DNA of 64,000 bases from Polyangiales bacterium. Its GTDB lineage: Bacteria; Myxococcota_A; Polyangia; Polyangiales; Ga0077539. Both the position numbers and the translations under genes were made by a program. Below the pieces are notes generated by a model. That model saw only the letters and a list, made by a program, of their open reading frames with translations, did not search any database and was not told where the DNA came from. Shown here piece by piece: positions 15,832-42,114 of this stretch. The stretch's first letter is position 1, and every line of letters begins with the position of its first letter. Location of the stretch: the NCBI GenBank assembly GCA_044229975.1, contig JBGARZ010000009.1, forward strand, positions 219,947-283,946. Direction: 5' to 3'.

Positions 15832-15834
15832 CGC

Positions 15835-21000: not shown

Positions 21001-21399
21001 CTGGGAGTTCTTGCGCGACTCCTTGCGGGCCTCCTCCTCGAAGCGGGCGCGGAGGAGTTCCTGACGCAGGCGGTCGACCTCGGCCTCCTCGTCGCGCGCA
21101 GAGATGCCGGCGAGCAGGCGCGCGGCGTCGTCGAGCACCCGCCAGGTGGGGTCGGCGTCGAAGCGGGCGCGCTCGGAGATGCGCGCGCGGACCGCGCGGA
21201 GGTCTTCGACGAGGCGGCGGCCGGGCTCGCCGAGTACGCGCGCGGGGGCGGGCTCCCACTGGGCGAGGAGGTGGTCGAAGAGGCCGTCGGGCGATGCCGG
21301 GAGTTCGGCGGGGCCAAGCGCACGTTGGGCCCACGGGCGGAGCGCGGTGTCGATGAGGTCGAGGGCGCGGGTGACTCGTTCGAGGTTCGACAGGGACAT
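18055..21399 (-). CDS. DUF499 ATPase, BrxC/PglY-like, with an N-terminal Swt1-like HEPN domain
   Basis: Characteristic DUF499 P-loop ELQTTFGGGKTHSMLALYHLF and Walker-B-like VVLVDEWVAY. Size 1114 aa, typical of BrxC/PglY. Confidence 0.7.
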   Translation of the reverse strand: MSLSNLERVTRALDLIDTALRPWAQRALGPAELPASPDGLFDHLLAQWEPAPARVLGEPGRRLVEDLRAVRARISERARFDADPTWRVLDDAARLLAGISARDEEAEVDRLRQELLRARFEEEARKESRKNSQVELKGAPSDGLKPWREVVLPHADVAKGTFQLAQFAADLWAVVTGDASEEYRDPAEFFRRTYLTEGLQQLLTNALQRLGGGSGDPVIELQTTFGGGKTHSMLALYHLFSGVAPTTLPGLEPVLERAGVSSLPPVRRAVIVGNKLSPGQPERKDDGTQVRTLWGEIAWQLGGREGYEMVRESDETATNPGDALRKVFARYSPCVVLVDEWVAYARQLFGSKELPGGNFDTHFTFAQQLSEAAKAAPRTLLVVSIPASESLVARDRKGQRLETEAQDIEVGGTFGHQALERLKNAIGRVESPWRAASSEESYEIVRRRLFQPVTDPALFAARDTVIRKFMELYRSNPNEFPAECKEKDYERKLQAAYPLHPELFDRLSMEWSSLPRFQRTRGVLRFMATVVHRLYHEGDRTLMILPASIPVASRDLQSELARYLDDPWGPVIERDVDGPGSLALRIDEENVNLGKVSAARRVARTIFMATAPVQRAAHVGIDEKSVRLGCVQPGEPIAPFGDALRRLVERGTHLYTEGSRYWLGLQATVSRLAEDRAADWKADVVAQEIVERLKEHFKTPANRGDFRATYVAPRKSGEVPDEREAGLVVLDPDDPHTPNATDSPGKLRAEEILEGRGTGPRTYRNSVVFLAPDRRRLVELEEAVRKFLAWKSIVKEANDLDLQPSQMTQATAREKAARETVQLRLHETWCLLLAPEQERGDDGAPPPAREWRELRLQAGGAEGLGVRASKKLRAEDLLVVELGGTMLKMHLDRVPLWRGDSVPVKTLADDFAKYLYLPRLQSTKVLIDAIGKGLANTAWETETYAWAERLDAETGRYAGLRAGTASTAVSADGDAVLVKAAVARAQMEADRARAEGAGTAVPKASPSGTFALVSPAGVEVARGGAAKAGAVAPTPEAMPKRFHASVDVEATQLAARAELIAKEVLKHLATLPGARVTVTLEVHAEMPEGASTEVVRNVRENCRTLGIADASFEK

Positions 21400-21508
21400 C
21401 GGGGGGACTCCGAGAGGAGGGAGCTCAAGCGGTTACGTCGAGGAAGGCGCGGCGGTACATCAGCGGATGAAGGGAACGCTCTCTACCGGATTCGACATCC
21501 GCCCTCAT

Positions 21509-22960
21509 CTATCGGGTCTTTTCCATTCGCGCCTGTAACGCCGCCAGCCGAGCGTTCATCCCTTGATGGCGATCATCGAAATCACGATGAGCCTGCCCGA
21601 TACGAACGAGTTCTGCATTCATACGAACGCTCTGCACCTGCCAGGCTTGCGCGCTGACTGCAAACCGGTGTGCAAGCGCGTCCTGAGCGACGACCAGCCT
21701 GACAGCACCGTTGGCCGTCGCCTGCAAGGCCTCACCCACCGCGGCGATTTGGGTGATGAGCGCAACCTGGGCTTCCCATGCCTCGCGATTCTCCGCTCTC
21801 CGCACGCCCTTCTTGAGGCCGTCATAGCCCGCACTGCCCAACAAGGACCCGACAAACGATCCCACCAACGCGCCCACGACCGGGATGGGAATCAGCACCT
21901 GCCCCGCGGCCGCACCGTACATACCCGCCACACCGGCCACGCAGCCGCCTGCGGTTCTGTCGCCAAACTGGGTTGCCGAGATTTCCCCCTGCGACAACCT
22001 GTACGCGTCGACCATCGCGCGAAGCACGACAGCCGTCATCGCACCAACAACCCCCGGGGTGACTGTACGCGCGGCCTCCCCCAACACCCCCGTCCGGCAC
22101 ATCACTTGTACCCCCGACGCGACAGCGCCGCGAAGGAATCCAGCACCGCCGCCATTGATCCCTTCTCTCGCGGCGGCCTTCAACGACTGGGTTGCACGCT
22201 CGCGATCACCCTCATAGGCACTCCGAAGGGTCGCGATCACATGAGGAGCGGCGGCCATGGCGGCTGAAATCGCGACCGCGCTCAACCCAGCCTTGGCCGC
22301 CTCGCGCGCAACATCCAACGGTTCGATGACCTGGTCGATCGATACACCGTAGTCACGGAGGTTCGCGTCCCCACGCTGTCCGTCCCTGGCGAGGCGGATC
22401 GCATCTTGTTGGTCCAGTGCATGGGACCGAGCGCCCCCGCCTTCCAGATGGTCACTCACGACATCCGCGGTATCACGCAATTGTGCAGCCTGCTCAGGTC
22501 TGTGGCCGTGAATACGGGCAGCACGCGCCAACGCCTCGGCCTGCACTCCATCCAACTGATCCGCCGGAGCGACCTTTCCCATGCCAGCATACTGAGGGTC
22601 GCTCAAAGCCTTCGCGGTCGCACCCGCATCGCGATGGTATTTGACCTGGTAGTCGACATGGCTGTGGCCCACGTGCAGGCGAGCGTCCGCCGGACCGTTG
22701 CCTCCGAGGCGTTCAGCTCGAACTTCGTGCAGGCCACTGCGTGCCGCGTCGACGTTGAACGCGCCAACGTGAAAGACCTCCGCCAGGAAGCCTTTGGCCG
22801 AGTGAAGCGAGTTGTTCCGATACTGCGCAGCGACCTCGTCAAGCATCTTGGAGAAGACAGCGATCGCCCCATCTACCGCGTCGGCGTAGGCTGCCCCATG
22901 CATCGCTCCATCTTGTGCGCCCACATGATCGCGCGCTCTGTCCGCATGTTCGTCGTTCAT
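21509..22960 (-). CDS. Hypothetical protein with a C-proximal glycine-zipper membrane segment
   Basis: GGCVAGVAGMYGAAAGQVLIPIPVVGALVGSFVGSLLGSAGYDG (GxxxG repeats). Stop overlaps the upstream gene start (ATGA). Confidence 0.45.
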   Translation of the reverse strand: MNDEHADRARDHVGAQDGAMHGAAYADAVDGAIAVFSKMLDEVAAQYRNNSLHSAKGFLAEVFHVGAFNVDAARSGLHEVRAERLGGNGPADARLHVGHSHVDYQVKYHRDAGATAKALSDPQYAGMGKVAPADQLDGVQAEALARAARIHGHRPEQAAQLRDTADVVSDHLEGGGARSHALDQQDAIRLARDGQRGDANLRDYGVSIDQVIEPLDVAREAAKAGLSAVAISAAMAAAPHVIATLRSAYEGDRERATQSLKAAAREGINGGGAGFLRGAVASGVQVMCRTGVLGEAARTVTPGVVGAMTAVVLRAMVDAYRLSQGEISATQFGDRTAGGCVAGVAGMYGAAAGQVLIPIPVVGALVGSFVGSLLGSAGYDGLKKGVRRAENREAWEAQVALITQIAAVGEALQATANGAVRLVVAQDALAHRFAVSAQAWQVQSVRMNAELVRIGQAHRDFDDRHQGMNARLAALQARMEKTR

Positions 22961-23919
22961 CTTGCTCCTACACTCAAATAGACTTCCAGAACCAGAACCG
23001 ACACTGCAAGTCCAACTGCCGCGGCTAGCGCAACCACCTTCCGGGTTGTCATCGGTCGGACGCCCATCAGATGAGGAGCAGCCACTTCCATTGCCCCACG
23101 CAGACGGGCTATCTCACGAGCCTGAACGTCGTGATCAGATTCCCTCTGCGCAATCGATTGTCGCAGCAGGGCGAGCTCTTGCGAAGCGCGCCGAGTCTGA
23201 ATATCGTGATCAGACTCCTTTTGCGCAATCGATCGCCGCAGAAGAGCAAGCTCTTGCGAAGTGCGATCACGCTCTTCGTGCATGATCATCTGTTGCTCAG
23301 CGAGCAAGAGCATCTGGTCGACGGTTCCTTGCACCTGGAGCAGGCGATCTGCCTGACCCGACTGAGTCGTGATCGCACCACCGACGGTATGTCGAAACGC
23401 TTCAAGCTCGGCATGGATCACCTGCGTCATCGCCATACTACGGGCGTTCGCTGCAAGCGCGACCCGCACGAGATGCACGGTGACGGCCTGCATCTTGACG
23501 ACGTCTTGCATGGCCAGCGCGAGATCGCGAGTATTGTTAGCGAACATCCGTCCGAAGAATCCCCGTTCAGCGATCTCCCCCAATCGATCCTGCGTCGAGA
23601 GCACCAGCGACGACAGGTCGCGGAATGCAGTTCGGACCTCCTCGGCTCGCTGCATGATCTCGGAGCCGTGCGCAGCCTTCGCGAGGCTCGATGTCCATGG
23701 AACCATCGAGCCAGCGCCGTCCGAACCCGCCATGGCACCAAACCTCCCGGAACTCACATCAATCCGCGGTCGGACGCTGTCCGTTCCACTTCGGCCGCGG
23801 AGACTGCCAGCGAAGGGCCCTCGTGGGAAGGACCTTCTCGGACAGTCGAGCGTCAAAGGACGGACGACGATGTCGTTCCGTCGGTCGAACTCCCAGCGGA
23901 GCAGCTCGACCTCGCAGTT
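22957..23919 (-). CDS. Hypothetical coiled-coil protein with a C-terminal transmembrane helix; contains a 66-bp tandem repeat
   Basis: Two copies of SQELALLR.SIAQ.ESDHD.Q.R. C-terminus KVVALAAAVGLAVSVLVLEVYLSV. Lower GC than the surroundings. Start uncertain; I took the GTG after the upstream stop, and the track ORF extends to 24108. Confidence 0.4.
   Translation of the reverse strand, partial: NCEVELLRWEFDRRNDIVVRPLTLDCPRRSFPRGPFAGSLRGRSGTDSVRPRIDVSSGRFGAMAGSDGAGSMVPWTSSLAKAAHGSEIMQRAEEVRTAFRDLSSLVLSTQDRLGEIAERGFFGRMFANNTRDLALAMQDVVKMQAVTVHLVRVALAANARSMAMTQVIHAELEAFRHTVGGAITTQSGQADRLLQVQGTVDQMLLLAEQQMIMHEERDRTSQELALLRRSIAQKESDHDIQTRRASQELALLRQSIAQRESDHDVQAREIARLRGAMEVAAPHLMGVRPMTTRKVVALAAAVGLAVSVLVLEVYLSVGAR
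23110..23285. repeat. Intragenic tandem repeat, about 66 bp x 2.5
   Basis: cgtgatcagattccctctgcgcaatcgattgtcgcagcagggcgagctcttgcgaagcgcg and cgtgatcagactccttttgcgcaatcgatcgccgcagaagagcaagctcttgcgaagtgcg. Confidence 0.6.
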
Positions 23920-23947
23920 CACAGGGTGAATGGTCGCATGCGGACGC

Positions 23948-24478
23948 TCAACCCGCTCTTCGCCCGCCGTCGAGGCCGCCAGCACACTGCGCCTGCCAGC
24001 ACGCAACGGCCAGGGCGAGCGCCTCGTCGAGCGAGTCGCAGCGCCGCATGTGAGGATGGAGCTTCGCAGCGGCCCAGAGGTAGTTGCGGCCTTCGGTCGT
24101 GGGTGCAATCACGAAGAACGTCGGAATCCTCGCGCCGAGCAGGAAGCCGAACTCGCACCGGCTGGCGAGGGCCTTCGACGCCGCGTCCAGATGGAAGACC
24201 ACGCAGATGGCGTCGCGGAGGCCCGCGTGCTCTCGAGCGACGAGTGCGTCGACATCGGCCTGGCGAGCGTCCCCGTTGCTGGCATCGATGCCCGACCAGT
24301 CTGTGGCGGTCGGGTCGAAGCCGGGGACTCCCGCCTGATGGAGCGCCGCGAGCAATGGCAGACGCCACGGCGTCGATATGGAGCCATACAGTGCAACAAG
24401 ACCAGATCGTGATGCGACGGTGGACGAGGTTTCAGACTCAATCATTGGAGTCACGCGGGGAGGATGTTCGGCGAGCAC
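23948..24478 (-). CDS. Hypothetical protein (176 aa), possible Rossmann-like fold
   Basis: GC3-biased ORF directly downstream of the deaminase gene: LVALYGSISTPW...ICVVFHLD...FFVIAPTTEGRNYLW. No confident family. Confidence 0.4.
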   Translation of the reverse strand: MLAEHPPRVTPMIESETSSTVASRSGLVALYGSISTPWRLPLLAALHQAGVPGFDPTATDWSGIDASNGDARQADVDALVAREHAGLRDAICVVFHLDAASKALASRCEFGFLLGARIPTFFVIAPTTEGRNYLWAAAKLHPHMRRCDSLDEALALAVACWQAQCAGGLDGGRRAG

Positions 24479-24528
24479 TTCAACGCTCGGAAGATGGTAA
24501 ACGACGACGCCCGCGGATTGTACCGCTG

Positions 24529-27144
24529 TTAGGCCTTACGCCCACCCGTGGATGGTCGCGATGCAGTGCTCCACGGTGGCGGTAGCAGCTCCCGTAGTGC
24601 CTCCCGATCGGCGCTGGCCGCCAGCGTGAACCGTGCTCGCATCCCGTTGCGCCGCGCCTCGTCGAGCCACGCGAGCGCTTGCCGTGCCGAGAGGTCGCGC
24701 CGCGAGAGCGCGTGGAAGATGTGCGCGTACTCGTCCGAGAGGCAGCTCGCGAAGGTCGCGGGGTTGTCAGTGTTGATCGAGAGCAGTACGTCGGGTCCGA
24801 CCGCCGCCGTCGCCCCGCCCACGGCCTCCGGCAGCGGCTGCAACCTGAACGCGGGGTGGTGCTCCAACGAGTCCAGGTTGCCCAGCAGGAGGTTGCACGA
24901 GGGGTTCGCCTCGACGGTGATCTCCAGCTGCCCGAGCTTGCGCCGCAGCCACGCCTGCAGCCTCCCCGCGACTGCCGTCTCGGCCTCCGTCGAGACGACC
25001 TCGACGACGTCCTGACCGCGCGCGAAGACCTCGCCCTCGCGCAGGTAACGCCAGAGCAGCAGCTCCGCGCCCTTCAGCCCGTCCGAGGTCCGCCGCACGG
25101 GGTAGCCCAGCCTCCGCAGCACGCGCGGGTCGTGCCGCAGCCGCCGCGCCTCGCCGTGCTCGGCGAGTGAACGCTCCTCGTCATAGATCGCCTTCGCGAG
25201 CCTCGTCGCCTCAGCCCGCACGTACTCCACCCGGCCCGCGTCGCCACTGAGGTCGCCGGTGCCGTAGCGATCCAGTTCCCAGAGCAGATCGTCGAGGCGC
25301 TCCTCGGCGGGTTGCATCACCAGCGGGGCGGCCTGCGTGTGGCGGGCGACGTCGACCCCCAGCACCAGCGCGTGCCCGATGCGGTCGCCCGTGTGCAGCA
25401 CGTGAAACTCCACCAGTTCGTGCACTCGGCGCAGGCCCTCCATCGCCCGCCGCCAGTCCTCCCCGGCGTGCACCGAGGTGCGGAACAGCTCCGGCTTCCA
25501 CCGCGGCTGCCGCCGCGCCAGTACCCGCGCGACCTCCGACGAGGCCCTCCGCAGCTGGTCGAAGAGCGGAACCGTCACCCACGTCGGCACGGCGAGCTCG
25601 ACATTGCAGACGTCAACGCTCCGCAACAAAATCAGCAACTCGGGACGAAGTCGTAGCGCCGTCTCGATCGCCTGCACCCGTTGCCACTGGTCCCGAAACC
25701 ACGGACCGAAGCGGTAGCCGAAGGCGGCGTTGTCGGGGTCGCCCTGCATCCGCTGCTTGCCACCCTGCGTGCGCTCCCAGCGCTTTACGAAGTGGAAGAT
25801 GAGCCCGACCTCGGGGCGCACCCGCCCGATGAGCGGCTCGAAGTCATGCGCCTGCCGGGCGAGCGCCCGCACCTCGTTGCGCACCTTGAACCAGCGATTG
25901 GCTGGCGTCGTACGCATCTCCAGGGCGCGCAGGTTCAGGTCACGCGACTGGGACATCAGCGCCTCCGCGTAGTAGTCAAACGTGGCGAGGTCGCGCAGCG
26001 GCGCGAGCCGGTCGTAGCGCTGGGTGAACCAGTCGAGCCCGCCCGTTCCTGGTTCCTGCACCAGGAAGCGGAAGGTCAGGCTGCGCACCCGGGTGTATTG
26101 CCAGAAGAGCTGCGCGAAGGTCGTGTCGTCGCGTCCGTCGCGGAGGAGATATCCAATCGCGCGACTGGCGAATCGCGTCTCCGGCGAGACCGACTCGGTC
26201 GGCGGTAGCCACGCCTCCAGCGGATCACGCACCTTCGAGCGGGGACCCGGGCGATGGGAGAGGCTGATGTAGAAGCGCCGGAGGACGGCGTTAGGGTGAC
26301 GCTGGTCCTGGCCGAGGAGCAGGGAGTTGAGCACGCTGGAGAACAGCGAGCGGGCGCCCTCGCCCTGGAAGCGGCGCAGCGTAGCATCGAGTCTCGGCAG
26401 GAATCGACGGAGGTATTCGTCGAGGGTGCCGCGGATGGTCCCCTCCTCGCGTCCCTGGAGGAAGCCCGCGAGCACCAGCCGGGTGATCTGCGCCGCGAGG
26501 AGATGTCCGATGAAGACCTTCGCGCTGTCGAAAGGCACCCTACCGCCGCGGGCGAGCTTCTTCTCGTCGGGTAGCGCTTCGAGGAGGCCCCGTGCGAGCA
26601 GTCCCCAGAGGCAGCCGAAGGAGAGAGCGGCGCCGACGTGGAGATGGCCCTCCGCGCAACCCTCGTCGAGGACCTGGCGGAGCTGCGGAGTGACGAGGGT
26701 GACGTGTTCGGTGGCGGGGTCGCGCCGGTCGGCCGCCGCGAGGGCCGCGACGAGGAGGTCGGAGGGGAGCGCGAGGGTGATCCAGCGCCAGCACTCGGCG
26801 CGGGCGTGGAGGTCGGAGTCACGGTGGAGGCAGACGGTGGTCCCGTCGGCGGAGAGCCATTGGCAGGCGGTCGTGGCGAGCACCTCGGCGAGGGACGCCG
26901 ATCGCGCGGGGTGGGAGAGCCAGAGCTGGTTGCGCTGCTGGCGGAGGGCGTCGAGGGTGGTGCCGGAGGCGCGCGGGCGGAGCCAGTCCTCTAGGGACGT
27001 CCAGAGCCTGCCGGTGGACTTGTCGGGGACGCCGGCGGCGTCGCGGCCGAGGGTGACGGTCGCGGCGCGGAAGGCGGGCTCGGCGCCGAAGGGCCAGGCG
27101 ATGACCTCCGCGGCGGCGCGGTGGTGGTGGCTCGCGGGGTCCAT
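24529..27144 (-). CDS. rdrB: Large divergent adenosine deaminase (amidohydrolase fold), RADAR RdrB-like
   Basis: Adenosine/AMP-deaminase metal-binding signatures in order: HLHVG, SVHAGEDW, GDRIGHALVLG, SINTDNPATF. 871 aa. ATG 3 nt after the stop of the upstream ATPase. Confidence 0.6.
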   Translation of the reverse strand: MDPASHHHRAAAEVIAWPFGAEPAFRAATVTLGRDAAGVPDKSTGRLWTSLEDWLRPRASGTTLDALRQQRNQLWLSHPARSASLAEVLATTACQWLSADGTTVCLHRDSDLHARAECWRWITLALPSDLLVAALAAADRRDPATEHVTLVTPQLRQVLDEGCAEGHLHVGAALSFGCLWGLLARGLLEALPDEKKLARGGRVPFDSAKVFIGHLLAAQITRLVLAGFLQGREEGTIRGTLDEYLRRFLPRLDATLRRFQGEGARSLFSSVLNSLLLGQDQRHPNAVLRRFYISLSHRPGPRSKVRDPLEAWLPPTESVSPETRFASRAIGYLLRDGRDDTTFAQLFWQYTRVRSLTFRFLVQEPGTGGLDWFTQRYDRLAPLRDLATFDYYAEALMSQSRDLNLRALEMRTTPANRWFKVRNEVRALARQAHDFEPLIGRVRPEVGLIFHFVKRWERTQGGKQRMQGDPDNAAFGYRFGPWFRDQWQRVQAIETALRLRPELLILLRSVDVCNVELAVPTWVTVPLFDQLRRASSEVARVLARRQPRWKPELFRTSVHAGEDWRRAMEGLRRVHELVEFHVLHTGDRIGHALVLGVDVARHTQAAPLVMQPAEERLDDLLWELDRYGTGDLSGDAGRVEYVRAEATRLAKAIYDEERSLAEHGEARRLRHDPRVLRRLGYPVRRTSDGLKGAELLLWRYLREGEVFARGQDVVEVVSTEAETAVAGRLQAWLRRKLGQLEITVEANPSCNLLLGNLDSLEHHPAFRLQPLPEAVGGATAAVGPDVLLSINTDNPATFASCLSDEYAHIFHALSRRDLSARQALAWLDEARRNGMRARFTLAASADREALRELLPPPWSTASRPSTGGRKA

Positions 27145-27147
27145 GCG

Positions 27148-30100
27148 TCAGGGCTTGGCGGGCCGCTTCCGGGCGCCTCCCTTTGCCCCGGAGTCTTTCC
27201 GCGTAGTCGATGCGCGGGCGGAACGCTGCCCAACCTTCGGTGCTGCTACCTCATCAGAAGGCGCCTCGATCCGATCGACACGGTCATACCAGGGATGTTC
27301 TGGAAAGCTCGAGCGCAGATGAGTGAATATCGGGCGGATGGCATCTGGCGAGTCGCAGAATCGAGCGGCCCACTCCACTCGGAGAGCCTTGAGAGTGTCC
27401 ACCGTCTCGCCGCCGACACCTAGAACCGTGGTGAGAACATGGCCTGCAACGGCTGGTGACACGCCAAGTTCAGGGGTCGCGAAGAGACCAAGTTCCCGTC
27501 GGAAGGTAGCGTAGTCACCGTGGTCCACCATTTCCGGCTTAGACTTCTTCCATGTGACGAGATCGCGAAGGAGGGTCTGCCAGTTCTGCCCGGTTGGCTC
27601 ACCCGTAAAATGCGCCGTCTGAACGCTCGACTCCCCCAGCAACCGGCGCGTGTTCTGGAGACAGCTGTAGAGCATGGCATCTACACGCCACTGAGGATCT
27701 GACACAGACCGAAGCTCACGCTGGTCGATCTGCCGAAGCGCCTCGTTCCAGGCATCCTCAATCTCAGAAACGTCTCCATACTGAAACCAATACAGAGCAG
27801 GCCAATAGAACTCCGGTCCATTGTCTCCGACCATGCATCGGACACCCTCCCACGGAAAGAAACCTACCCTCCTCGGGGTTGGGATCACAGAATTCGACGC
27901 GGCGTAGTCTGTCGCAATGGAATACACTGCATCGCAAGGCGACTGAAGCCGTAGGTCGTCCACGGTGACTCGAATTTCCCCGATCTCGTAGGTCCCAACG
28001 ACCAGATCTCCAGGAAGTGCAACCTGCCTCGTCGGGTGCTCGACCGTTTCGCGCGTGAACCGAAGGCCGTTCGTCTCGATACGCTGTTCGTCGCCCGGGA
28101 CCACTCGAACGGCCTTTCCAAAACGCTGCTGCTTCGTCGCGGAGATCGAAGCGTGCCACAATTCTGCAATGATCCGAGCTGTCGGAACGCTGCCGAACCG
28201 GTTTTCCTCAAGCACCCTCCTCATGACGTCAACGGCGTTGCGCGGCGCGCGAGAGAGCCTCCGCCGAACGAAACCGCTCAGGCGGTTACTCCCAACCAGA
28301 TTTCCCAGGCTTTGAATGAGGTCGGCGACATCCTTGGTCGGCGCCCGTCCCGCAACTCCGACCCCAGCAAACTTCAACCATGGATGATCCGTGGCGGCCA
28401 CCTCGTCGATCGCGTTCCGATAAATCGCGATCTGCGCCTCGTCCGTCGGTCGCCTCCGCAACGGAACCATTCGATGCGCAACGCCACGTCGAATCATCTC
28501 ATTTCGCGCGATCACCAACTCATCACGCAACGCAGACGCCCAAAGTCTTTCTCCAAACTCCTTCCTGAGCAGTTTCAGCCAGGACATAGCTGACTCGGGA
28601 GGAAGTCCACATTCAGGTGCTCCCAGCAGAGCCACCCGGGAGCGGGCCCAGACGGCGAAGGACTTCGCTCGTGGTGTTGTCGCCCGTTGCACTCCTAACC
28701 TGGCAACGCGAGGCGCCAACTCGCTCCACTTCGGCGCCTGAGTTTCCGACTCGTTCAAACGAATAGTTGGATCAGCCAGCTCGGCCTGATCGAGAACTAA
28801 TCCGACCAGAGTCCGGGCGAGGTGGTCAATGTGTCCTGCCCCCCAGGCACTACCAAGGCATGATTCACGCCACCTTCTTTCGACAACAATCGCATCCAAC
28901 GGAGACACCCAATCCGGGACGGGCCACGAAATAGGCAACACATCATCCCAAATGGCACCCTCAGCGGTGTCCCGACTCTCGGCAGCACGAGACAAGAACC
29001 GAACACTCGAAATGCAGTACCGATCGAAGACTGAAACACTTCCAAATTCATTGAACGGCGGAAAAGGACCGTCGGTAAGTGCGTCCTCGTGCATCATCGC
29101 CACAAGTGCGGACGTCGATGCGCCAGACAAAGACGCCGCTTCCTGCGGACGGTCAGCGCTCAGACCCGACCCACCCGGCGGCTCGATCCACCAGTGCGCC
29201 AGGGTTTGGAATGTGAGATCCGTTCCGGATCCGCTGGATGACGTATGGATGCCACGCCAATCGGCCCGAAGTCGAAACTCGCCACTTCTGACTCGAATTG
29301 ATCCGTCATCGGTATCAAAGAGAACATCCCGGCTTCTGCTCCGGAGGGCCAAGGACTTCGCATCATCTTCAATCGCGTGTCTCCAGAGATCGCGGAGAGC
29401 TGCGGCGCGGTTTCGATCGCCGACCTTCAGCGTCGCCGCCCGTCGGGTGCGAGCAGTCGTGGTCCCTTCGGCGGATCGCGTCGGCATGATAGCTTCGGAC
29501 CAACCGAACCAAACCGAGTCCGCCCGCAAGACGCCTTCTTGGAGCTGTCGGAGATTGCCGGGTAGCGCAAGGAGAAGCTCCGGAAGAGCCTTCATATATC
29601 CGCTCAGAGGCAAGCGCCCGTCGTGCGTCAGGTCGTCAATGCGACAAACCAGGGAGTTCATGGATACTCGTGACGTTCCCCTTCCACTCTCCGCCCCGCG
29701 AACATCTGAGTCAAAGTGCACCTCCCATCGATCACGCACGGCAATCTCGCTCAACGCGAATCGCTGGCTTTCAGGCACCGACTTGCTGAAAATCTGCCTG
29801 GAGATCTTCGCCGCCTTTTCGAGGCTTCCGTCTTCGAACGCAGGCGTCCTTCCAGAGTCGGAGGCCGCACTACCCAGCCGAATGTCGCGCAGAACCGAAT
29901 GCCGCAAAACGAGCTCAAATAACTCGCTGTCACCGGCAAGGACGATAGCAAACCGAGGATGCCACAACATCCTGATAATATCGATCAACTCCGGTACTCT
30001 CATGACATTCATATCACCATCATCAATGGGCAATACAAACAGCGGCGCTCGATCCCTCCAGTGCATTGCGCTGGCAAAGTCCTTTGCGAAGCAGTCCATC

Positions 30101-30831
30101 AGCTTTCCGAAGGATGATCTCACATCCATTCGGTCCGCCTCAACCTGCTGAAGCTCGTCCACGTAGCTCTCGAGATCGAGTCCGCCGCTCCGCCCCTTCA
30201 TGACGTCGTCCCACCCGATCACGACGGTGCTCATAAAGCCCCTCCAGGCATCGAAGGCCCCTGATCGAGTGCCCATCGTTTGCCAGGCAGTTCGCTCGAT
30301 GGTCCCCTCACCCGGGAGCCCGCGCTGAATCGCCTCGGCGATCGGGCGAAGACGGGTGGCGATGTGCGCCAGAAGATGCGTCGACTTCGGCAAGGGCTGC
30401 AGATCGAGAATCTCAAGCGGCACCACTTGAGAGCCCGTATAGACCTTCTGGAGGCTCTCCGCGACGAGCTTGCTGTCGAGCATCGGCCCCTGCACCTTAG
30501 GCTGAGGACGGCCTCGAATTGCGTTATTCCAGTGACCGAGAATCGATAACAGTACCGCGGTCTTTCCCGTACCCCGATCGCCGTCGATTAGGGCAACGCG
30601 ATTCGATCGCGCCTGATCAATGCGAGGAAGCACCAATTCGATCACGCAATCGCGCGACTCTCCTTGGATGTTCCCGGCGGTCGTCTCCTTCGCCATCGCG
30701 TCGACTAGATCAAGGATTCGCCGCGTCGCCCACCGCTGGTCCTCAGTCATCTCGTGCCAGTCCAGCGGCCGCGCCTCCGCCCTCGGCCCGCCGCTCACCC
30801 GATTCTCCCCGCCGCCGTTCGCGCTCGTCAT
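27148..30831 (-). CDS. rdrA: Large P-loop NTPase (KAP/AAA-like, 1227 aa), RADAR RdrA-like
   Basis: Walker A ALIDGDRGTGKTAVLLSIL, Walker-B-like FVLPIDDGDM (KAP-type hhhhDDxD). GC about 57%, versus about 70% around it. Immediately precedes and is coupled to the deaminase gene. Confidence 0.5.
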   Translation of the reverse strand: MTSANGGGENRVSGGPRAEARPLDWHEMTEDQRWATRRILDLVDAMAKETTAGNIQGESRDCVIELVLPRIDQARSNRVALIDGDRGTGKTAVLLSILGHWNNAIRGRPQPKVQGPMLDSKLVAESLQKVYTGSQVVPLEILDLQPLPKSTHLLAHIATRLRPIAEAIQRGLPGEGTIERTAWQTMGTRSGAFDAWRGFMSTVVIGWDDVMKGRSGGLDLESYVDELQQVEADRMDVRSSFGKLMDCFAKDFASAMHWRDRAPLFVLPIDDGDMNVMRVPELIDIIRMLWHPRFAIVLAGDSELFELVLRHSVLRDIRLGSAASDSGRTPAFEDGSLEKAAKISRQIFSKSVPESQRFALSEIAVRDRWEVHFDSDVRGAESGRGTSRVSMNSLVCRIDDLTHDGRLPLSGYMKALPELLLALPGNLRQLQEGVLRADSVWFGWSEAIMPTRSAEGTTTARTRRAATLKVGDRNRAAALRDLWRHAIEDDAKSLALRSRSRDVLFDTDDGSIRVRSGEFRLRADWRGIHTSSSGSGTDLTFQTLAHWWIEPPGGSGLSADRPQEAASLSGASTSALVAMMHEDALTDGPFPPFNEFGSVSVFDRYCISSVRFLSRAAESRDTAEGAIWDDVLPISWPVPDWVSPLDAIVVERRWRESCLGSAWGAGHIDHLARTLVGLVLDQAELADPTIRLNESETQAPKWSELAPRVARLGVQRATTPRAKSFAVWARSRVALLGAPECGLPPESAMSWLKLLRKEFGERLWASALRDELVIARNEMIRRGVAHRMVPLRRRPTDEAQIAIYRNAIDEVAATDHPWLKFAGVGVAGRAPTKDVADLIQSLGNLVGSNRLSGFVRRRLSRAPRNAVDVMRRVLEENRFGSVPTARIIAELWHASISATKQQRFGKAVRVVPGDEQRIETNGLRFTRETVEHPTRQVALPGDLVVGTYEIGEIRVTVDDLRLQSPCDAVYSIATDYAASNSVIPTPRRVGFFPWEGVRCMVGDNGPEFYWPALYWFQYGDVSEIEDAWNEALRQIDQRELRSVSDPQWRVDAMLYSCLQNTRRLLGESSVQTAHFTGEPTGQNWQTLLRDLVTWKKSKPEMVDHGDYATFRRELGLFATPELGVSPAVAGHVLTTVLGVGGETVDTLKALRVEWAARFCDSPDAIRPIFTHLRSSFPEHPWYDRVDRIEAPSDEVAAPKVGQRSARASTTRKDSGAKGGARKRPAKP

Positions 30832-30895
30832 CTCGACACCCCTCTCTCGACTTAGCTCGACCCCTCGCCACCCGCCGCCCCCGCCCCTCGCCCGC

Positions 30896-33757
30896 TCACC
30901 CCATCCCCGGCAGTCCCCGTTGCGCCGGCGTCTCCGCCACGCTCGACGCCTCGCCCGCAGCCGCCGCCAGCTTCGCCACTTCGGGCCACGCGGTCACCAG
31001 CCCGTTGTAGGCCAGCGCCTCCGCCGCCCACTTCTTCCGTTCGCACAGGCTGTACAGCCGATAGGCCAGCTCGCGCGCCGCCTCGCCCTGCGCGCCTACC
31101 CGCGCCAGCAGCTCGCCCGCCGCCCGCTCGCCCTTCGCCTCCAGCGCGCGGATCAGGTGCTGCGCCACCTCCCACACCGTCCGCCGCGCGTCTGTCGCCG
31201 GGTCCCAGTCGGCCGACAGCTCCGCCCGCGTGAGCAGCGCCACCTTGCCGCGCGACGACCGCAGGACGCCCGCCTCCACCAGCCCCGCCACCGAGGTGTT
31301 CTTCGCCCGCGCCAGCGTGTCGGCACTCCCGAACTCCGCCTCGCCATACTGGTGCTGCTCGAACCACGCGAGGGCGCAGCGCGTGTCGGCGTCGAAGTCA
31401 CCCTCCTGCTCGGAGAGCACCTCGTCGAGCACCTGGTTGATGATCTGTAGCGCGGTGCGAACGCTCATCGCCGACCCGTCGGACTCCAGCACCTTCGCGT
31501 ACGACGAGAACACCGCCATCCCCGGTCCGATCGCCGCCTGCGCGAAGTCCACCGGGGCGATGTTGCCCTGCTGGAGCAGCTTGAGGTCCCGCGGGAGCGT
31601 GCGCTTCAGGGCGCGCAGGAAGTCCGATCGGGTCGCCGAGGGGGCGTCGTCCGCGCGCTTGCGGCAGACGAGTACGATCGAGGAGGCGAGGGCGTTGATG
31701 TGCTTCTTGATGTTACCGGTAAGCTCGGTCCTTACCGGCCAAGTCCCGTGCACGACGAATCCTGAACCCAATAGACTGGAAAGCATCGTCTCCCAACCAG
31801 ACGACGCAACCACGCCACCACCGGCATCGCCCTCGCCATCAGACTCAACCTGCTTGAATGCGTAGTAGACCGCGAGTGGATACCCTTCGACTTGACGCTC
31901 GTATATCCGACCGAATGCGATACGAATCTTCTCTTCGAAGAAGTCCTTCGCCCTCGCCAGATCGCCACCGTGTCGGTGCTGCGAAGCGACCAATTCCGAG
32001 TTCTTGGGGACGGTGATTGTGGCAAAAAGGTTCGGATACAACAGGCCCACCGAACGCCTGAGCCATACGTAGAAAAAATCCGAGAGGTCGGCGTAGCCGA
32101 TGTTGTCATAATACGGCGGATCGGTGCTCACCACGACCCCTTCGGGACCGCCCGGCTCACAGGCATCGGCTTGAAAGGCTCTCCCAAGGCATGTCAAATC
32201 GGCGGGAATTCTAAGCAGGTTCTGGTAGACACCGTCGACTTGGCTAATAAAATTTCCACTAGACTCGCTGAACGGATTCCCCTCGGCATAGTCCCACGTC
32301 ATCGTGAGCGCCTGCCTCGCAAACGTACTGGTGATCGTCTCGTACTTAGCTCCCGAGTGCCACGAGCACAGCATCGAAGAATAGTTCACCAGACGGTCAA
32401 CAGCGAATGACAAGAACACAGCAATCGCTTCCCCGTAACCAGCCTTGGCAGGATCACTCAACGGGCGGACGTCCTTCAATACCTCCGCTCGCACCTCTTC
32501 GACGAGACCGGAGAGGGTCGCGAGGGTGTTCAGTTGCCGAGGTGTGAAGGCGTCTGCCCATTCGTACATACCGTACATTGGCAACCGATCGACATCATGG
32601 CTCGGTGTCGTCACCCTCTCAGACGGACGCCAATGCGACTGTGCCGACGCTGCGATTGATGCGTGGCTATCGATGGACGACAGATATATCCTGGCCCTTT
32701 TGCCCTCGGCAACGATCGCGGTAGGAATCGATCCCATGCGTCCCGCCTGCGCCTCCTCGCGCACATAAGAGAGCTCAAATTCGTTCTTGCAGGCAAGGCA
32801 ATATGCGCTGCGAGCGCGAACGGTCCCCACTGACTCGCCAGCACCCTTTTCGACGCGAAATCCACCTCTACCTCCGAGCGCCTTGGGGTCGGCGACCAGG
32901 TGATATTCTTTGCCAGGCTTTGTCGCGAGGGATAGTGATCGAATCAGCGGCGCGGTGGCATTGCATGCGGGATTCGGACACTTCACCGTCCGAGCCCAAA
33001 GCCACGCGATGACCGTCGCCTCTCCGCCGCCGTGCTCCGTCGATAGTGTCACCTTCGGATACAGGTGTCCAATCCGCTTGAAGGCCTCATCCCTCATCCA
33101 CGTCCCGTAATACCGGACGTCCTCCGCGAGCCCCTCGGCGCCCTTCCACGTCCGCATCTTCTGGTTGCGCTGCGACTCCGGGTTCACCGGCGGCTGCCCC
33201 GCGAACTTCGGCGGAATCTCGATCAATGCCTTGTTGATCAGCACCGCCACCGGGTTGAGGTCCGTCGCGATGGCCCGCAGCCCGAGCCGCTGCGCCTCCA
33301 ATGGAATGGTCCCGCCCCCCGCGAAGGGGTCGTGCACCGGCGGCAGCGCCGTCGCGAGGTACTGATTGACCACCGCGGCCGCGGGCTTCTCCCCGAGGAT
33401 CACGTCGGCCCGCGGGTCGTCCCGGTGGAAGCGCGCGTGCGACTGCGCGATCTCCCGCCGCGCCTCGTTGATGATGGCCTCGTCGTGGCTCGCCTCCCAC
33501 GGCACCATCCGCTCGATCAGCCGGAACAGCCGCTCGCGCTCGCGCTTCTGCCCGGCCTCATCGCCCTGGAGTTCGGGCCAGGTGCTCGGGTCATCCACGA
33601 GTTGCGCGAACAGCACCGCGCGCGCCGCCGCCAGCGGTCGCCGCGCCCACCAGAGATGGAGCGTCGAGGGGTGCCCGTGGCGAATGGACTTCTCCCTCCC
33701 GGCGGCGGCGTTGATGGCTTCGAGCGGGAGCGCGACCTCGATGAGCTTCTTGGGCAT
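30896..33757 (-). CDS. DUF1156-type DNA methyltransferase (N6-adenine or N4-cytosine, DPPY class)
   Basis: N-terminus MPKKLIEVALPLEAINAAAGREKSIRHGHPSTLHLWWARRPLAAARAV (DUF1156 signature). Motif I DPFAGGGTIPLEA. Motif IV STDPPYYDNIGYADLSDFFYVWLRR. Confidence 0.75.
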   Translation of the reverse strand: MPKKLIEVALPLEAINAAAGREKSIRHGHPSTLHLWWARRPLAAARAVLFAQLVDDPSTWPELQGDEAGQKRERERLFRLIERMVPWEASHDEAIINEARREIAQSHARFHRDDPRADVILGEKPAAAVVNQYLATALPPVHDPFAGGGTIPLEAQRLGLRAIATDLNPVAVLINKALIEIPPKFAGQPPVNPESQRNQKMRTWKGAEGLAEDVRYYGTWMRDEAFKRIGHLYPKVTLSTEHGGGEATVIAWLWARTVKCPNPACNATAPLIRSLSLATKPGKEYHLVADPKALGGRGGFRVEKGAGESVGTVRARSAYCLACKNEFELSYVREEAQAGRMGSIPTAIVAEGKRARIYLSSIDSHASIAASAQSHWRPSERVTTPSHDVDRLPMYGMYEWADAFTPRQLNTLATLSGLVEEVRAEVLKDVRPLSDPAKAGYGEAIAVFLSFAVDRLVNYSSMLCSWHSGAKYETITSTFARQALTMTWDYAEGNPFSESSGNFISQVDGVYQNLLRIPADLTCLGRAFQADACEPGGPEGVVVSTDPPYYDNIGYADLSDFFYVWLRRSVGLLYPNLFATITVPKNSELVASQHRHGGDLARAKDFFEEKIRIAFGRIYERQVEGYPLAVYYAFKQVESDGEGDAGGGVVASSGWETMLSSLLGSGFVVHGTWPVRTELTGNIKKHINALASSIVLVCRKRADDAPSATRSDFLRALKRTLPRDLKLLQQGNIAPVDFAQAAIGPGMAVFSSYAKVLESDGSAMSVRTALQIINQVLDEVLSEQEGDFDADTRCALAWFEQHQYGEAEFGSADTLARAKNTSVAGLVEAGVLRSSRGKVALLTRAELSADWDPATDARRTVWEVAQHLIRALEAKGERAAGELLARVGAQGEAARELAYRLYSLCERKKWAAEALAYNGLVTAWPEVAKLAAAAGEASSVAETPAQRGLPGMG

Positions 33758-33977
33758 TGGGCGGCGCGCAGTCTGCGCCCCGACGCGTCCCGCCGGGAAG
33801 AGGGAACCACCCCGCGGCCTCGGCGCCGTTCCTCCATCGGGGGACTGCTTTGCCCCTGGTGGCGCTGACTATTCCTGACCGGTGGCTGCGGGCCGGTGCG
33901 CCACGAGTTCGGCACGAGCGCACCTGCATCAAGGAGCTTGCGTTCGCTCCCTTTTGTCCGCTCTCGGGGCGGTCCGC

Positions 33978-34502
33978 TCAGCTTGCGACACGCGGCGGAT
34001 CATGGCCCATGGTCACGCGGTAGAGGTCGCAGAGGTCCACGAGCTGGGCTGCGGCGATCGCGACCTGGCGCACATGGTACTGGGGTTCTCCCTCCCAGCC
34101 GTCCTTCCCTTCGTTGACGTCCACCCGGAAGTGCCGACGCGCCTCCTTCGCGCGCTCGGCGATCAGCCGTCCGAGACCCTCCATCGCGTCGAGCGCCACG
34201 CACGCCATTGTCTCGCCCTCGCCGTGCTCGCCCGGGTCGACCGCCATCGCGCCGCATTGCACGAAGACCACCTGGGCGAGCGCGAGCTCCGGGCACCAGA
34301 GATCGACCGACGCATCGAGGGCGTTCTGCGTGACCTCGGCCAGCACCGGGTGCGCCTCCAACCAGGTCAGCGGGCGGGTGAGAGCCGCACGATCCTTTCG
34401 GGCGCCACCAGCCTCCGTCGATGGAGGCACTTCAGCGGTGGACCTGGCGGACGAGCGGGCGGAACCCTCCGCCTCGGGGCGAGCCCTTCGCGGCGCGCTC
34501 AC
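33978..34502 (-). CDS. Hypothetical small protein (about 174 aa) of the operon
   Basis: GTG start overlaps the upstream stop (GTGA). GC3-biased. The track ORF's N-terminal 65 aa overlaps the upstream gene and is judged spurious. Confidence 0.4.
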   Translation of the reverse strand: MSAPRRARPEAEGSARSSARSTAEVPPSTEAGGARKDRAALTRPLTWLEAHPVLAEVTQNALDASVDLWCPELALAQVVFVQCGAMAVDPGEHGEGETMACVALDAMEGLGRLIAERAKEARRHFRVDVNEGKDGWEGEPQYHVRQVAIAAAQLVDLCDLYRVTMGHDPPRVAS

Positions 34503-35203
34503 GCGTCCGCCCCCGACCGGAACCACGTGCTTCCACGGTGGATCACGGGCACACCGCGTCTTGCCGCGAGCATCAGCCCATCGACTACCCGCCAGAGCCG
34601 CCGCAGGAGCAGGGCGATCTCCTGTTGGCGCTCGGACATCTCCATGATGTTCCCGGCGACCTTGCTCTCGTCCTCGGTTCCGATGGTCGCGTCGCACAGG
34701 CGGTCGACGATGCTGTCGATGTGGCGTCGCGCGGGCCTCGTGATTCGGCGGGCAACTCGCGCGAGCTGCTCGGCGTAGTCGAGCGGCCCGAGCCGGAAGA
34801 CCACACGCGTACCGAGATCGAACACCAGCAACTCTCGCGCGAGCTTCGGATCGCCGGCGTAGTAGGCGAAGAGCTTCAGGTCCCAGAGCAGCGAGGCCGG
34901 GACCTTCGTCCGGCGCGCTGGCGCGGCGGTCTTACTCGCGGGCGGCGGCGTGCGATGCGCTACGGCCGACGGCGATGTCGGTTGCAACTGGATGAGTTTC
35001 CCGCTGACGGGAGCGGCCTTCGTGGTCGTAGCCACGGGGACTCTCGGCTGTCCGATCGGCGGGCGAACGTCGCCCGCAGCGCCCAGTGGCGCGGCCTTGT
35101 TGTGCACGGTTCCCGTCTCCTGCGGCGCACGTTGGACAACCCCAGCGCCGTCGGAGCGACCCAACGATGGCTGCGTCGCGGATGTTCCACGGACAGTCGT
35201 CAC
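34499..35203 (-). CDS. Hypothetical protein (234 aa) between the SNF2 helicase and the methyltransferase; candidate DUF3780-type partner
   Basis: GC3-biased ORF 19 nt downstream of the SNF2 gene stop. DLKLFAYYAGDPKLARELLVFDLGTRVVF... No motif recognised; the DUF3780 idea comes only from known gene-neighbourhood context. Confidence 0.4.
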   Translation of the reverse strand: MTTVRGTSATQPSLGRSDGAGVVQRAPQETGTVHNKAAPLGAAGDVRPPIGQPRVPVATTTKAAPVSGKLIQLQPTSPSAVAHRTPPPASKTAAPARRTKVPASLLWDLKLFAYYAGDPKLARELLVFDLGTRVVFRLGPLDYAEQLARVARRITRPARRHIDSIVDRLCDATIGTEDESKVAGNIMEMSERQQEIALLLRRLWRVVDGLMLAARRGVPVIHRGSTWFRSGADA

Positions 35204-35222
35204 GAGCGGGTTCGGAGTGGGA

Positions 35223-40946: not shown

Positions 40947-40978
40947 CCGATGGCCACCCGCAGCGTCAATGGCGGTGT

Positions 40979-41878: not shown

Positions 41879-42114
41879 CGGACGCCAGGCTACCGGCGAG
41901 CAGGGCGACGTCAACGACTGGGCGGAAGGGTTGCGGTGCTGCCGGAGTACCGTGGCGATCTCGGTTCTCACTTCTCTCGACCTCGTCCGATGCGGCCGAG
42001 CCCACTGCCAATCGGTGGGCGAGATGTCAGATCGTTCACCGGAGGGGCGTCGAACCGGTGCTTTGTCCAAGAACACCGGTGGTGGGGCGCAGGCCCACCA
42101 AGGATGCTCGCCGC
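41879..42114. promoter_or_regulatory. Divergent intergenic region; likely promoter(s) for the minus-strand defence super-operon and the plus-strand enzyme cluster
   Basis: Only sizeable non-coding gap between the two oppositely oriented gene arrays. AAGGA is 10 nt upstream of the 42115 ATG. Confidence 0.35.

Follow-up and report, generated by a model that had tools for sequence, protein, structure and literature searches.

The closest described relatives of the gene pair considered here are the RADAR systems from E. coli P0304799.3, C. rodentium and S. suis (PDB 8fnt, 8fnv, 8fnw, 8hr7; PMC9994260), in which the gene for the ATPase RdrA is followed, in close juxtaposition, by that for the giant deaminase RdrB. 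Validated RADAR systems show conservation in two regions only, the ATPase domain, at 22-25% identity, and the C-terminal part of RdrB, at 24-28%. The active site of E. coli RdrB comprises a zinc-binding histidine tetrad (H152, H154, H498 and H530) and the catalytic E501 (PMC9994260). Other ADA-fold enzymes making ITP or dITP in infection are Cad1, the CARF-ADA protein of type III CRISPR, and KomA of Kongming, a system in which dITP from the defence deaminase activates an NAD+-depleting effector (bioRxiv 10.1101/2024.12.20.629578). The embedding of genes in Hma has likewise already been described: Payne et al. 2024 (bioRxiv 10.1101/2024.01.29.577857) found that 62.7% of Hma systems carry embedded genes and observed that the embedded systems occur outside Hma too, the Hma-embedded share of Septu systems, for example, being just 0.7%. 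RADAR is named in neither the main text nor the supplementary text of that study.

In this context we describe a window, that is, the whole stretch of 64,000 nucleotides analysed from a Polyangiales bacterium, in which a RADAR-like pair lies between the genes of an Hma operon. The principal features are the following.

35223-38345, minus strand: HmaA, SNF2-type helicase (PADLOC HmaA, 849 bits), further upstream of the pair
30896-33757, minus strand: HmaB, DUF1156 DNA methyltransferase (PADLOC HmaB, 1127 bits), upstream of the pair
27148-30831, minus strand: RdrA-like AAA+ ATPase, 1227 aa; Walker A GDRGTGKT at aa 84-91, Walker B IDDGD at aa 269-273, two tandem C-terminal modules
24529-27144, minus strand: RdrB-like giant adenosine deaminase, 871 aa; histidine tetrad H167/H169/H559/H591, catalytic E562, and D793
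18055-21399, minus strand: HmaC, DUF499 ATPase carrying HEPN_Swt1 at its N-terminus (PADLOC HmaC, 993 bits; Pfam DUF499 and HEPN_Swt1)

The coordinates, strand, gene order and motifs of the pair, as given in the initial annotation, were confirmed from the translations: both frames start with ATG, the ATPase stop codon and the deaminase ATG are 3 bases apart (27145-27147), and the deaminase carries the motifs H167-L-H169, H559-A-G-E562, R588-I-G-H591 and S789-INTDNP795. In family alignments the motif residues of both proteins are invariant or at least 90% conserved. Because homologues exist (22 full-length sequences for the deaminase; 970 cluster representatives at E<=1e-3 for the ATPase), the two frames are real genes and not chance open reading frames of GC-rich DNA. 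The pair is best read as a distant, highly divergent member of the RADAR family, composed of an RdrA-like ATPase, the putative sensor and activator, and an RdrB-like, presumed nucleotide deaminase.

Sequence profile and predicted fold place the deaminase in the RdrB family. It matches PADLOC RdrB at E 1.5e-26 and, as a single sequence, the RdrB structures 8fnw/8hr7 at E 3.5e-14, while its family profile aligns with E. coli RdrB in the PDB over 495 positions at E 1.9e-46, ordinary ADAs giving E values of at least 1e-6. The AlphaFold (AF2) model (pLDDT 88) matches RdrB in Foldseek at E 2e-25 over about 900 columns, with a TM-score of 0.67 (query) or 0.74 (target), as against 0.27 for ordinary ADA and 0.22-0.26 for Cad1; Foldseek and profile agree that the whole RdrB architecture, the ADA barrel together with the additional domains of RdrB (~800 aa), is present. 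H167, H169, H559, H591 and E562 are invariant in an alignment of 23 deaminase sequences and correspond to RdrB H152, H154, H498, H530 and E501, the last three histidine and glutamate positions of our protein (H559, H591, E562) by direct alignment; the conserved zinc ligands and catalytic glutamate accompany the full ADA signature noted initially. Divergence from RADAR proper is nevertheless considerable. Identity to RdrB is ~18%, and both proteins score far below the curated NCBIfam equivalog cut-offs, which are set for close orthologues and not for the wider family (110.9 bits against 800 for RdrB NF041744; 34.1 bits against 600 for RdrA NF041743). From Cad1 and Kongming the pair differs in having no CARF domain, no cyclic-oligoadenylate or kinase-dependent logic and an AAA+ ATPase as partner; for Kongming the comparison was one of Pfam domains, and the genes nearby gave neither a SIR2 nor a HAM1 match.

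The same data bear on the substrate. That the deaminase edits adenosines in RNA rather than free nucleotides would accord with the original model of RADAR, proposed by Gao et al. 2020 (summarised in PMC9994260), and with the titles of PDB entries 8hra and 8hrb, which describe RdrA rings in an 'RNA-loading state'. Yet the protein has the fold and the active site of a mononucleotide deaminase, it has no added RNA-binding domain detected by Pfam, and E. coli RADAR converts ATP to ITP robustly with RNA editing undetected in vitro (PMC9994260), such that we consider RNA editing extremely improbable here.

The ATPase, judged by its sequence, has only the N-terminal AAA+ core in common with RdrA. RdrA is its only significant match across PADLOC (32.7 bits, E 6e-9), NCBIfam and, with the family profile, the PDB (8hr7_A/8fnt_B, E 5e-4); the top 19 Foldseek matches of its low-confidence model are likewise all RdrA, over ~300-350 columns. 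As in RADAR, Walker A and Walker B are set apart in the core by a long helical insert, and G87, G89, K90, D270, D271 and D273 are invariant in 69 sequences. Over the ~850 aa of the C-terminus, comparison of the family profile with the PDB detects no similarity to RdrA; this region is predicted to be helical, but bears no sequence similarity to RdrA's alpha-helical lobe at the C-terminus, which forms the heptamer's second layer, and the full-length model (pLDDT 49) is unreliable, particularly beyond aa ~350. The protein is ~300 aa longer than RdrA and contains a C-terminal module in two tandem copies (aa ~628-826 and ~1002-1189; hhalign probability 99.8%, E 2e-29), which is specific to the family and has the pattern WPxPxW...AAPESGL...HPW. 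No match to the KAP NTPase domain was found, there being no Pfam family at E<=0.01 and the best HMM and structural matches being RdrA. Thus of the initial proposals the RADAR-like pairing is borne out by comparison of profiles and structures, RdrB being matched whole and RdrA over the AAA+ core, whereas the KAP-like reading of its Walker B motif has to be abandoned in favour of an RdrA-type core. What is conserved relative to RADAR is limited to the regions conserved among the validated systems themselves.

A search for relatives returned 46 loci, almost all in Myxococcota, of which 37 hold both genes. In every one of these 37 the ATPase gene lies upstream of the deaminase gene on the same strand, in most with a gap of no more than ~30 nt, and the identities of the ATPase N-domain and the deaminase co-vary across loci (r = 0.86). 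RdrC or RdrD, the small membrane proteins that may accompany RADAR, were not recognised with the pair. In RADAR a heptamer of RdrA docks on a dodecamer of RdrB, and protection from phage depends on the active sites of both proteins. By analogy with E. coli RADAR (PMC9994260), the AAA+ ATPase would oligomerise and dock on an RdrB-like oligomer, infection would be sensed by the fast-evolving C-terminal region of the ATPase, here two copies of one module, and the deaminase would then turn ATP and dATP into ITP and dITP, so that the nucleotide pool is poisoned and the infection aborted. Assembly, substrate, trigger and defence phenotype are thus presumed to follow the E. coli precedent.

The initial placement of the pair within a methylation-based operon also held good. 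The three Hma proteins (helicase, methylase and ATPase) are encoded in the same orientation and matched over nearly the full lengths of their models (Pfam SNF2/Helicase_C, DUF1156 and DUF499); the pair, co-oriented with them, lies between hmaB, from which the ATPase gene is separated by 64 nt, and hmaC, which forms the downstream boundary of the embedded cargo. This arrangement, together with the retention of the pair at the same Hma site in a sister genome, might suggest that the pair functions within this Hma system, for instance as an Hma-triggered effector arm, and is not independent cargo. We regard such a role as highly improbable. Hma is absent within 10 kb in all 37 other both-gene loci, which makes residence inside Hma a feature of this lineage; one related Hma locus (L052) holds different cargo, LeoA/LeoBC-like dynamins, at the corresponding site, and another (L051) has extra genes; the sister ATPase appears disrupted while its Hma genes are 96-99% identical; and known Hma-embedded defence systems occur elsewhere too, as the figure for Septu illustrates. 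The pair is accordingly swappable cargo, occurring outside Hma at a site whose contents vary between related Hma loci, as do the embedded defence genes of Payne et al. 2024. The locus departs from that description in having five genes (two cassettes and one gene) between hmaB and hmaC, where the study allowed three per gap, and in the swapped central segment of its methyltransferase. What the analysis demonstrates is homology, conservation of the active site, the order and embedding of the genes, and breakpoints of both composition and similarity.

The composition of the operon is discordant, though not quite as first reported. The contrast between a GC-poor ATPase gene and a GC-rich deaminase gene stands (59.7% against 70.8%), the earlier value of about 57% for the ATPase being inexact, but it is not the case that the rest of the operon is uniformly near 70%, since GC is low too in the centre of HmaB (GC3 0.64-0.71) and in three small downstream genes (GC3 0.65-0.75). 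Windowed GC3 delimits the discordant part of the ATPase gene:

27181-30684, minus strand: compositionally foreign ATPase body, codons ~50-1217, flanked by the host-like first 49 and last 10 codons

GC3 is 0.88 in codons 1-49, 0.60-0.75 in the body and 0.90 in the last 10 codons, with a mean of ~0.65 over codons 50-1217 against 0.89 for the deaminase, whose codon composition is host-like. Comparison with the sister genome gives similar limits: nucleotide similarity of the ATPase gene extends only over codons 1-49 (83%) and from 27175 downstream, and the body has no nucleotide match and 35% amino acid identity. Since the sister's own ATPase is rearranged, the similarity breakpoint at codon 49 is partly of the sister's making. 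The surrounding frame is far closer (HmaC and downstream 95.6% and HmaA 95.8% in nucleotides; 98.7% and 96%, respectively, in amino acids), whereas the deaminase gene is 80.4% identical in nucleotides and only 0.5-0.88 at third positions, compared with 95-97% for the flanking hma genes, from which it follows that the cassette has a history different from that of its frame. HmaB, 96-100% identical in amino acids to the sister's HmaB at both ends, falls to 24-60% in aa ~250-700, and its centre (nt ~31697-32983) is a swapped low-GC segment.

Could the low GC of the ATPase simply reflect rapid, family-wide diversification of a sensor under AT-biased mutation, in an operon inherited vertically as a unit? 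In 33 other loci the GC3 of the ATPase C-region is indeed below that of the deaminase (mean 0.072, p 1.8e-5) and of its own N-domain (p 6e-9), and the 36% identity between window and sister C-regions, though low, lies inside the family range, because C-regions reach only 35-54% identity between loci whose deaminases share 70-79%. A C-region that is hypervariable and GC3-poor throughout the family thus accounts for part of the discordance, and the sister's ATPase is moreover the top match of the window ATPase among 1.84 billion representatives. The slowly evolving N-domain, however, does not differ in GC3 from the deaminase elsewhere in the family (-0.016 +/- 0.043, maximum 0.067), but is 0.20 lower in the window, a gap ~5 SD outside the family that supports a chimeric operon; the changes in GC3 at codons ~50 and ~1217 are abrupt, and the third-position divergence of the deaminase stands apart from its frame. 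Vertical inheritance with no horizontal replacement therefore appears rather unlikely. The nearest neighbours of the two window proteins also differ, those of the deaminase being paired with short one-module ATPases; neighbour-joining placed the ATPase N-domain with at most 13% bootstrap. Recombination from another sub-lineage is the most likely origin of the GC-poor ATPase body, and the gene has the look of a recent arrival from a different lineage, as the initial annotation had suspected in proposing a recombined partner.

Downstream of the pair lie three further genes.

23948-24478, minus strand: nucleoside-2-deoxyribosyltransferase-like (NDT-like) protein, 176 aa, conserved Glu109 (29.2 bits to Pfam PF15891, whose gathering cut-off is 30)
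22957-24108, minus strand: coiled-coil protein with a C-terminal transmembrane helix (maximal ORF 383 aa, from the translation; GC3 0.65)
21509-22960, minus strand: PDC-M09B-like membrane protein, 483 aa (PADLOC PDC-M09B, 49 bits, E 7e-14; GC3 0.69)

The coiled-coil gene probably starts near 23736 (~259 aa), and its stop overlaps the start of the PDC-M09B-like gene by 4 nt. PDC-M09 is an untested two-gene candidate system (Payne et al. 2024, bioRxiv 10.1101/2024.01.29.577857), which the two membrane-protein genes resemble in the PDC-M09B match, in translational coupling to the upstream gene and in being embedded in a defence system; they differ in that the upstream 383-aa ORF matches no PDC-M09A, other PADLOC or Pfam family, and they are not part of the RADAR-like pair. 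An accessory role like that of RdrC/D, suggested initially for all three, was rejected: the sister locus keeps the pair with all three absent, only the NDT-like gene recurs (in one of the 37 both-gene loci), and no RADAR-named PADLOC model is matched, in a library that may lack RdrC/D models.

A related possibility is that (d)ITP is a signal and not a poison, the NDT-like and membrane proteins being responsive effectors as in Kongming. Signalling by dITP from a defence deaminase has been described (bioRxiv 10.1101/2024.12.20.629578), a 42% identical NDT-like homologue divergently adjoins the RADAR-like pair in locus L011, and a metagenomic homologue has a Ham1 ITPase gene 1.8 kb away. Set against this are the absence of the three genes from the sister locus, the occurrence of the two membrane-protein genes in none of the 37 loci and of the NDT-like gene in L011 alone, three metagenome NDT-like homologues with no RADAR-like neighbour, the match of the membrane pair to a separate candidate system and a GC3 unlike that of the deaminase, all of which make a signalling role very unlikely. 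The three small genes are instead a second, independent cargo insertion, in which the NDT-like gene is separate or optional cargo.

Taken as a whole, we think it probable that a divergent RADAR-family pair sits between hmaB and hmaC as exchangeable cargo, that the operon is chimeric and that the small genes are a second independent insertion. More speculatively, and with considerable doubt, RADAR may be modular, such that the sensor ATPase of a sub-lineage recombines against a resident, conserved deaminase effector, the conserved first ~49 and last ~10 codons of the ATPase gene serving as homology arms; the specificity region of HmaB would have been exchanged by the same route, and the recurring NDT-like enzyme could act on inosine nucleotides as a facultative accessory.

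Every gene in the region around the pair lies on the minus strand, and PADLOC calls the surrounding operon as an Hma (helicase/methylase/ATPase) defence system, with an RdrA-like ATPase and an RdrB-like deaminase, the counterparts of the two proteins of the anti-phage system RADAR, placed between HmaB and HmaC. Both open reading frames of the pair and the motifs reported in the initial annotation were read directly in the translations, namely Walker A GDRGTGKT (residues 84-91) and Walker B IDDGD (269-273) in the ATPase, and HLH (167-169), HAGE (559-562), RIGH (588-591) and SINTDNP (789-795) in the deaminase. The family alignments of both proteins show little or no variation at these residues.

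Genes of the Hma operon and of the segment embedded in it
35223-38345, minus: HmaA (PADLOC 849 bits)
30896-33757, minus: HmaB (PADLOC 1127 bits)
27148-30831, minus: RdrA-like ATPase, 1227 aa
24529-27144, minus: RdrB-like deaminase, 871 aa, starting 3 nt after the ATPase reading frame
23948-24478, minus: NDT-like (nucleoside-2-deoxyribosyltransferase-like) protein (PF15891, 29.2 bits against a cut-off of 30)
22957-24108, likely start ~23736, minus: coiled-coil protein with a C-terminal membrane helix
21509-22960, minus: PDC-M09B-like protein (PADLOC 49 bits; PDC-M09B is an untested candidate system component), overlapping the preceding stop by 4 nt
18055-21399, minus: HmaC (PADLOC 993 bits)

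Judged by sequence and predicted fold, the deaminase is a member of the RdrB family. It is matched by RdrB in PADLOC (E 1.5e-26) and in NCBIfam, the latter at 111 bits against an equivalog cut-off of 800, and E. coli RdrB is its sole PDB match by phmmer (E 3.5e-14). With a family profile of 23 sequences the match to RdrB, across 495 positions, has E 1.9e-46, compared with 1e-6 or worse for ordinary adenosine deaminases. Similarly, the AlphaFold model, which is confident (pLDDT 88, pTM 0.89), superimposes on whole RdrB chains (TM 0.67/0.74, ~900 columns, 18% identity); ordinary adenosine deaminases, Cad1 and AMP deaminases cover the barrel alone, at TM 0.22-0.27. The metal site proposed from the motifs is borne out on alignment, where all positions of the RdrB zinc tetrad and catalytic glutamate (H152, H154, H498, H530 and E501; PMC9994260) are present, as H167, H169, H559, H591 and E562.

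The ATPase is RdrA-type, as far as profile and model comparisons tell, in its N-terminal ~350 residues, no other part being recognisable. RdrA is matched in PADLOC at E 6e-9 and in NCBIfam at E 1e-8 (34 bits, equivalog cut-off 600), and for a 69-sequence ATPase profile RdrA (8hr7_A, 8fnt_B) is the only significant PDB match (E 5e-4), with the Walker A and Walker B region aligned colinearly. The full-length AlphaFold model, made from a 10-sequence alignment, is poor (pLDDT 49) and usable only for the N-terminal ~350 residues, but its best 19 Foldseek matches are RdrA chains, the next being BrxC at E 0.015. Taken together, the PADLOC, NCBIfam, PDB and Foldseek matches support the RADAR-like identity first suggested for the pair. 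The KAP-like character ascribed to the ATPase does not hold, a Pfam search having matched neither KAP nor any other family. In the C-terminal ~850 residues no similarity to RdrA is detectable, and this part contains an internal duplication (residues ~628-826 against ~1002-1189; profile-level probability 99.8%, E 2e-29), the two copies sharing WPxPxW, AAPESGL and HPW; it is visible at the profile level only, BLASTP between the two halves being not significant. The lengths of the family's ATPases are bimodal, ~760 and ~1150 aa, which fits one-module and two-module forms, the modules having been counted in the ATPase of the window. Even between validated RADAR systems, conservation is limited to the ATPase domain (22-25% identity) and to a C-terminal portion of RdrB (24-28%), so that divergence such as that of the pair has precedents inside RADAR.

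A word-indexed protein search gave 10 relatives of the ATPase, from which it could be taken for an orphan; this reading was overturned by an exhaustive HMMER search, which returned 970 cluster representatives at E<=1e-3, 200 of them at E<=1e-30. A scan with the deaminase profile, covering one genome per species, yielded 46 loci, nearly all in Myxococcota (Polyangiaceae, Archangium, Myxococcus, Sorangium and Cystobacter); in the literature searched no mention of RADAR in myxobacteria was found. Polyangiales is likewise the label of the relatives of the window's HmaB, and the window's gene content includes TonB_C, FGE-sulfatase and WG repeats. Both point to a probable myxobacterial host and not to the Streptomyces-like one that the 70% GC might suggest. 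Both genes are held by 37 loci (within L004-L048, loci of related genomes), always co-oriented and with the ATPase first; in most of these loci no more than ~30 nt separate the two. Hma genes occur within 10 kb of the pair in none of the 37, and the identities of the ATPase N-domain and of the deaminase co-vary (Pearson r = 0.86). Because order and strand are constant, Hma genes are not nearby and the identities co-vary, the pair is a self-contained two-gene module.

Embedded genes are found in 62.7% of 1,485 Hma systems, and 22.8% of those genes belong to known defence systems (Payne et al. 2024); RADAR is not named in the main text or supplementary text of that study. In the sister, the related genome GCA_044228995.1 (L001 and L051), two blocks, kinase-HmaA and HmaC-to-UvrD, share 95.6-95.8% nucleotide identity with the window. 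Between HmaA and HmaB the sister has a three-gene cassette with a CHAT protease, HmaB is followed by two extra genes, and the RADAR-like pair is kept. At a further locus (L052, GCA_963851735.1, 13266-23243) HmaB is followed by LeoA/LeoBC-like dynamin GTPases (Eleos-like) instead of the pair. The site between HmaB and HmaC is thus, per these two related Hma loci, a cargo slot.

The three small genes between the deaminase and HmaC had been thought possible RdrC/D-like accessories. Their GC3 (third-codon-position GC) is low, 0.65-0.75 in all three, and they are missing at the sister locus (window 21407-24583). They represent cargo of their own and not RdrC/D, with one possible exception, the NDT-like gene. 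A homologue of this gene, 42% identical, is the divergently oriented neighbour of the pair in L011 (7033-7524, minus); three metagenome homologues have no RADAR-like neighbours. Its absence from the sister locus and those metagenome neighbourhoods led us to reject it as an obligatory accessory. One of the three metagenome homologues lies 1.8 kb from a gene for Ham1, an ITP/XTP pyrophosphatase (L053 8001-8441, 10200-10961), a weak hint that the NDT-like gene may be linked to inosine-nucleotide metabolism.

The composition of the pair is discordant: GC is 59.7% in the ATPase and 70.8% in the deaminase, and GC3 is 0.65 and 0.89 respectively, with 0.86-0.93 in neighbouring genes. Along the ATPase, GC3 is 0.88 in codons 1-49, 0.60-0.75 in codons 50-1217 and 0.90 in the last ten, and it is 0.97 at the start of the deaminase. 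Against the sister, the deaminase is 80.4% identical in nucleotides (third-position identity 0.5-0.88) and the Hma frame ~96%, whereas the ATPase body has no detectable nucleotide identity and 35% amino acid identity. We do not take the 35% for the ATPase against 77% for the deaminase as proof of a swap. The C-region is hypervariable family-wide (35-54% identity where deaminases are 70-79%) and its rate of divergence is about double, which would be expected for a putative sensor under diversifying selection. In the sister, the ends of two contigs each hold part of the RdrA-like gene (L001 1-135, L051 14850-15401; the deaminase is intact). Past codon ~49 its sequence is unlike any family member, and the contig with its C-terminal part opens with a transposase gene's 3' end. 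The sister ATPase is thus probably an IS-disrupted copy without the P-loop domain, and the similarity breakpoint at codon 49 is partly due to its rearrangement.

Given this variability, the argument for a swap rests on the GC3 of the N-domain and on the GC3 steps. The main alternative is that the low GC of the ATPase is an extreme case of a family-wide trend, and such a trend exists: the C-region lies below the deaminase in GC3 (mean deficit 0.072, p 1.8e-5) and below its own N-domain (p 6e-9). The family N-domain, calibrated on 33 loci other than the window, differs from the deaminase by -0.016 +/- 0.043, at most 0.067; in the window its deficit is 0.20. This outlier and the steps support the recombined ATPase partner proposed initially, and we consider it likely that recombination brought the ATPase body into an operon in which the deaminase was a long-standing resident. 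The nearest relatives of the deaminase (L004, L005, L011, L008 and L007, mostly with short ATPases) are a different set from those of the ATPase N-domain (L010, L026, L033, L042 and L040, tending to lower GC3). In separate neighbour-joining trees the deaminase groups with L004 at 64% bootstrap and the ATPase is left unplaced at <=13%. Promoters and terminators predicted in 21000-35500 were no more frequent than in shuffled sequence.

HmaB is also a mosaic. Its centre (31697-32983, residues ~250-700) has GC3 0.64-0.71 and 24-60% amino acid identity to the sister HmaB, its ends 0.92-0.95 and 96-100%; the centre may correspond to a specificity region of the enzyme that has been swapped. The gap between HmaA and HmaB (33758-35222, 1.46 kb) contains no confident gene; in L051 (5233-9745) and L052 (4154-9947) it holds an opposite-strand cassette of three to four genes, including a CHAT protease of ~960-980 aa. 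HmaC carries an N-terminal Swt1-like HEPN domain at residues 40-100 (Pfam 28.6 bits, cut-off 27.5), annotated in the sister HmaC too. A neighbour that seems to resemble Druantia type I adjoins HmaC directly downstream (6930-18039, minus): genes for an unassigned protein of 734 aa, a DruD-like protein of 334 aa, a UvrD-like helicase and a DruE1 of 2095 aa (PADLOC 1495 bits), with 91-96% conservation in the sister. Upstream of HmaA (38373-42133, minus) a GmrSD N-terminal (DUF262)-Ser/Thr protein kinase fusion of 857 aa is kept in three related loci, with an HNH-like 384-aa gene beyond it. The window's single tRNA gene is tRNA-Met (CAT), 61830-61905, minus.

By homology to E. coli RADAR, from which the whole mechanism is inferred, ATPase rings would dock on the deaminase oligomer and, on infection, license conversion of ATP/dATP to ITP/dITP, leading to abortive infection, with the variable C-terminal modules of the ATPase as candidate sensor. 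The pair represents a clade of RADAR that is divergent and had not been annotated before; both the system and the type of genomic context were known, and the known logic of RADAR and of Hma embedding is left as it is. Its interest is moderate, and lies in the duplicated putative sensor module, the probably chimeric operon and the cargo-swapping Hma frame with its apparently swapped methyltransferase centre. The operon is a concrete case for Hma operons as platforms, with cargo exchange at two sites and a methyltransferase core that appears to be exchanged as well; for annotation it matters that most tools permit a smaller gap than one of five embedded genes. Ultimately, RADAR is extended to a Myxococcota-centred clade missed by curated models, a natural experiment with one- and two-module candidate sensors, a fast-evolving, GC-poor C-region and at least one operon in which sensor and effector would have different histories, and the ~970 ATPase representatives provide a large and diverse set in which to study what is sensed by the C-terminal region of RdrA, the chief question still open for this system.
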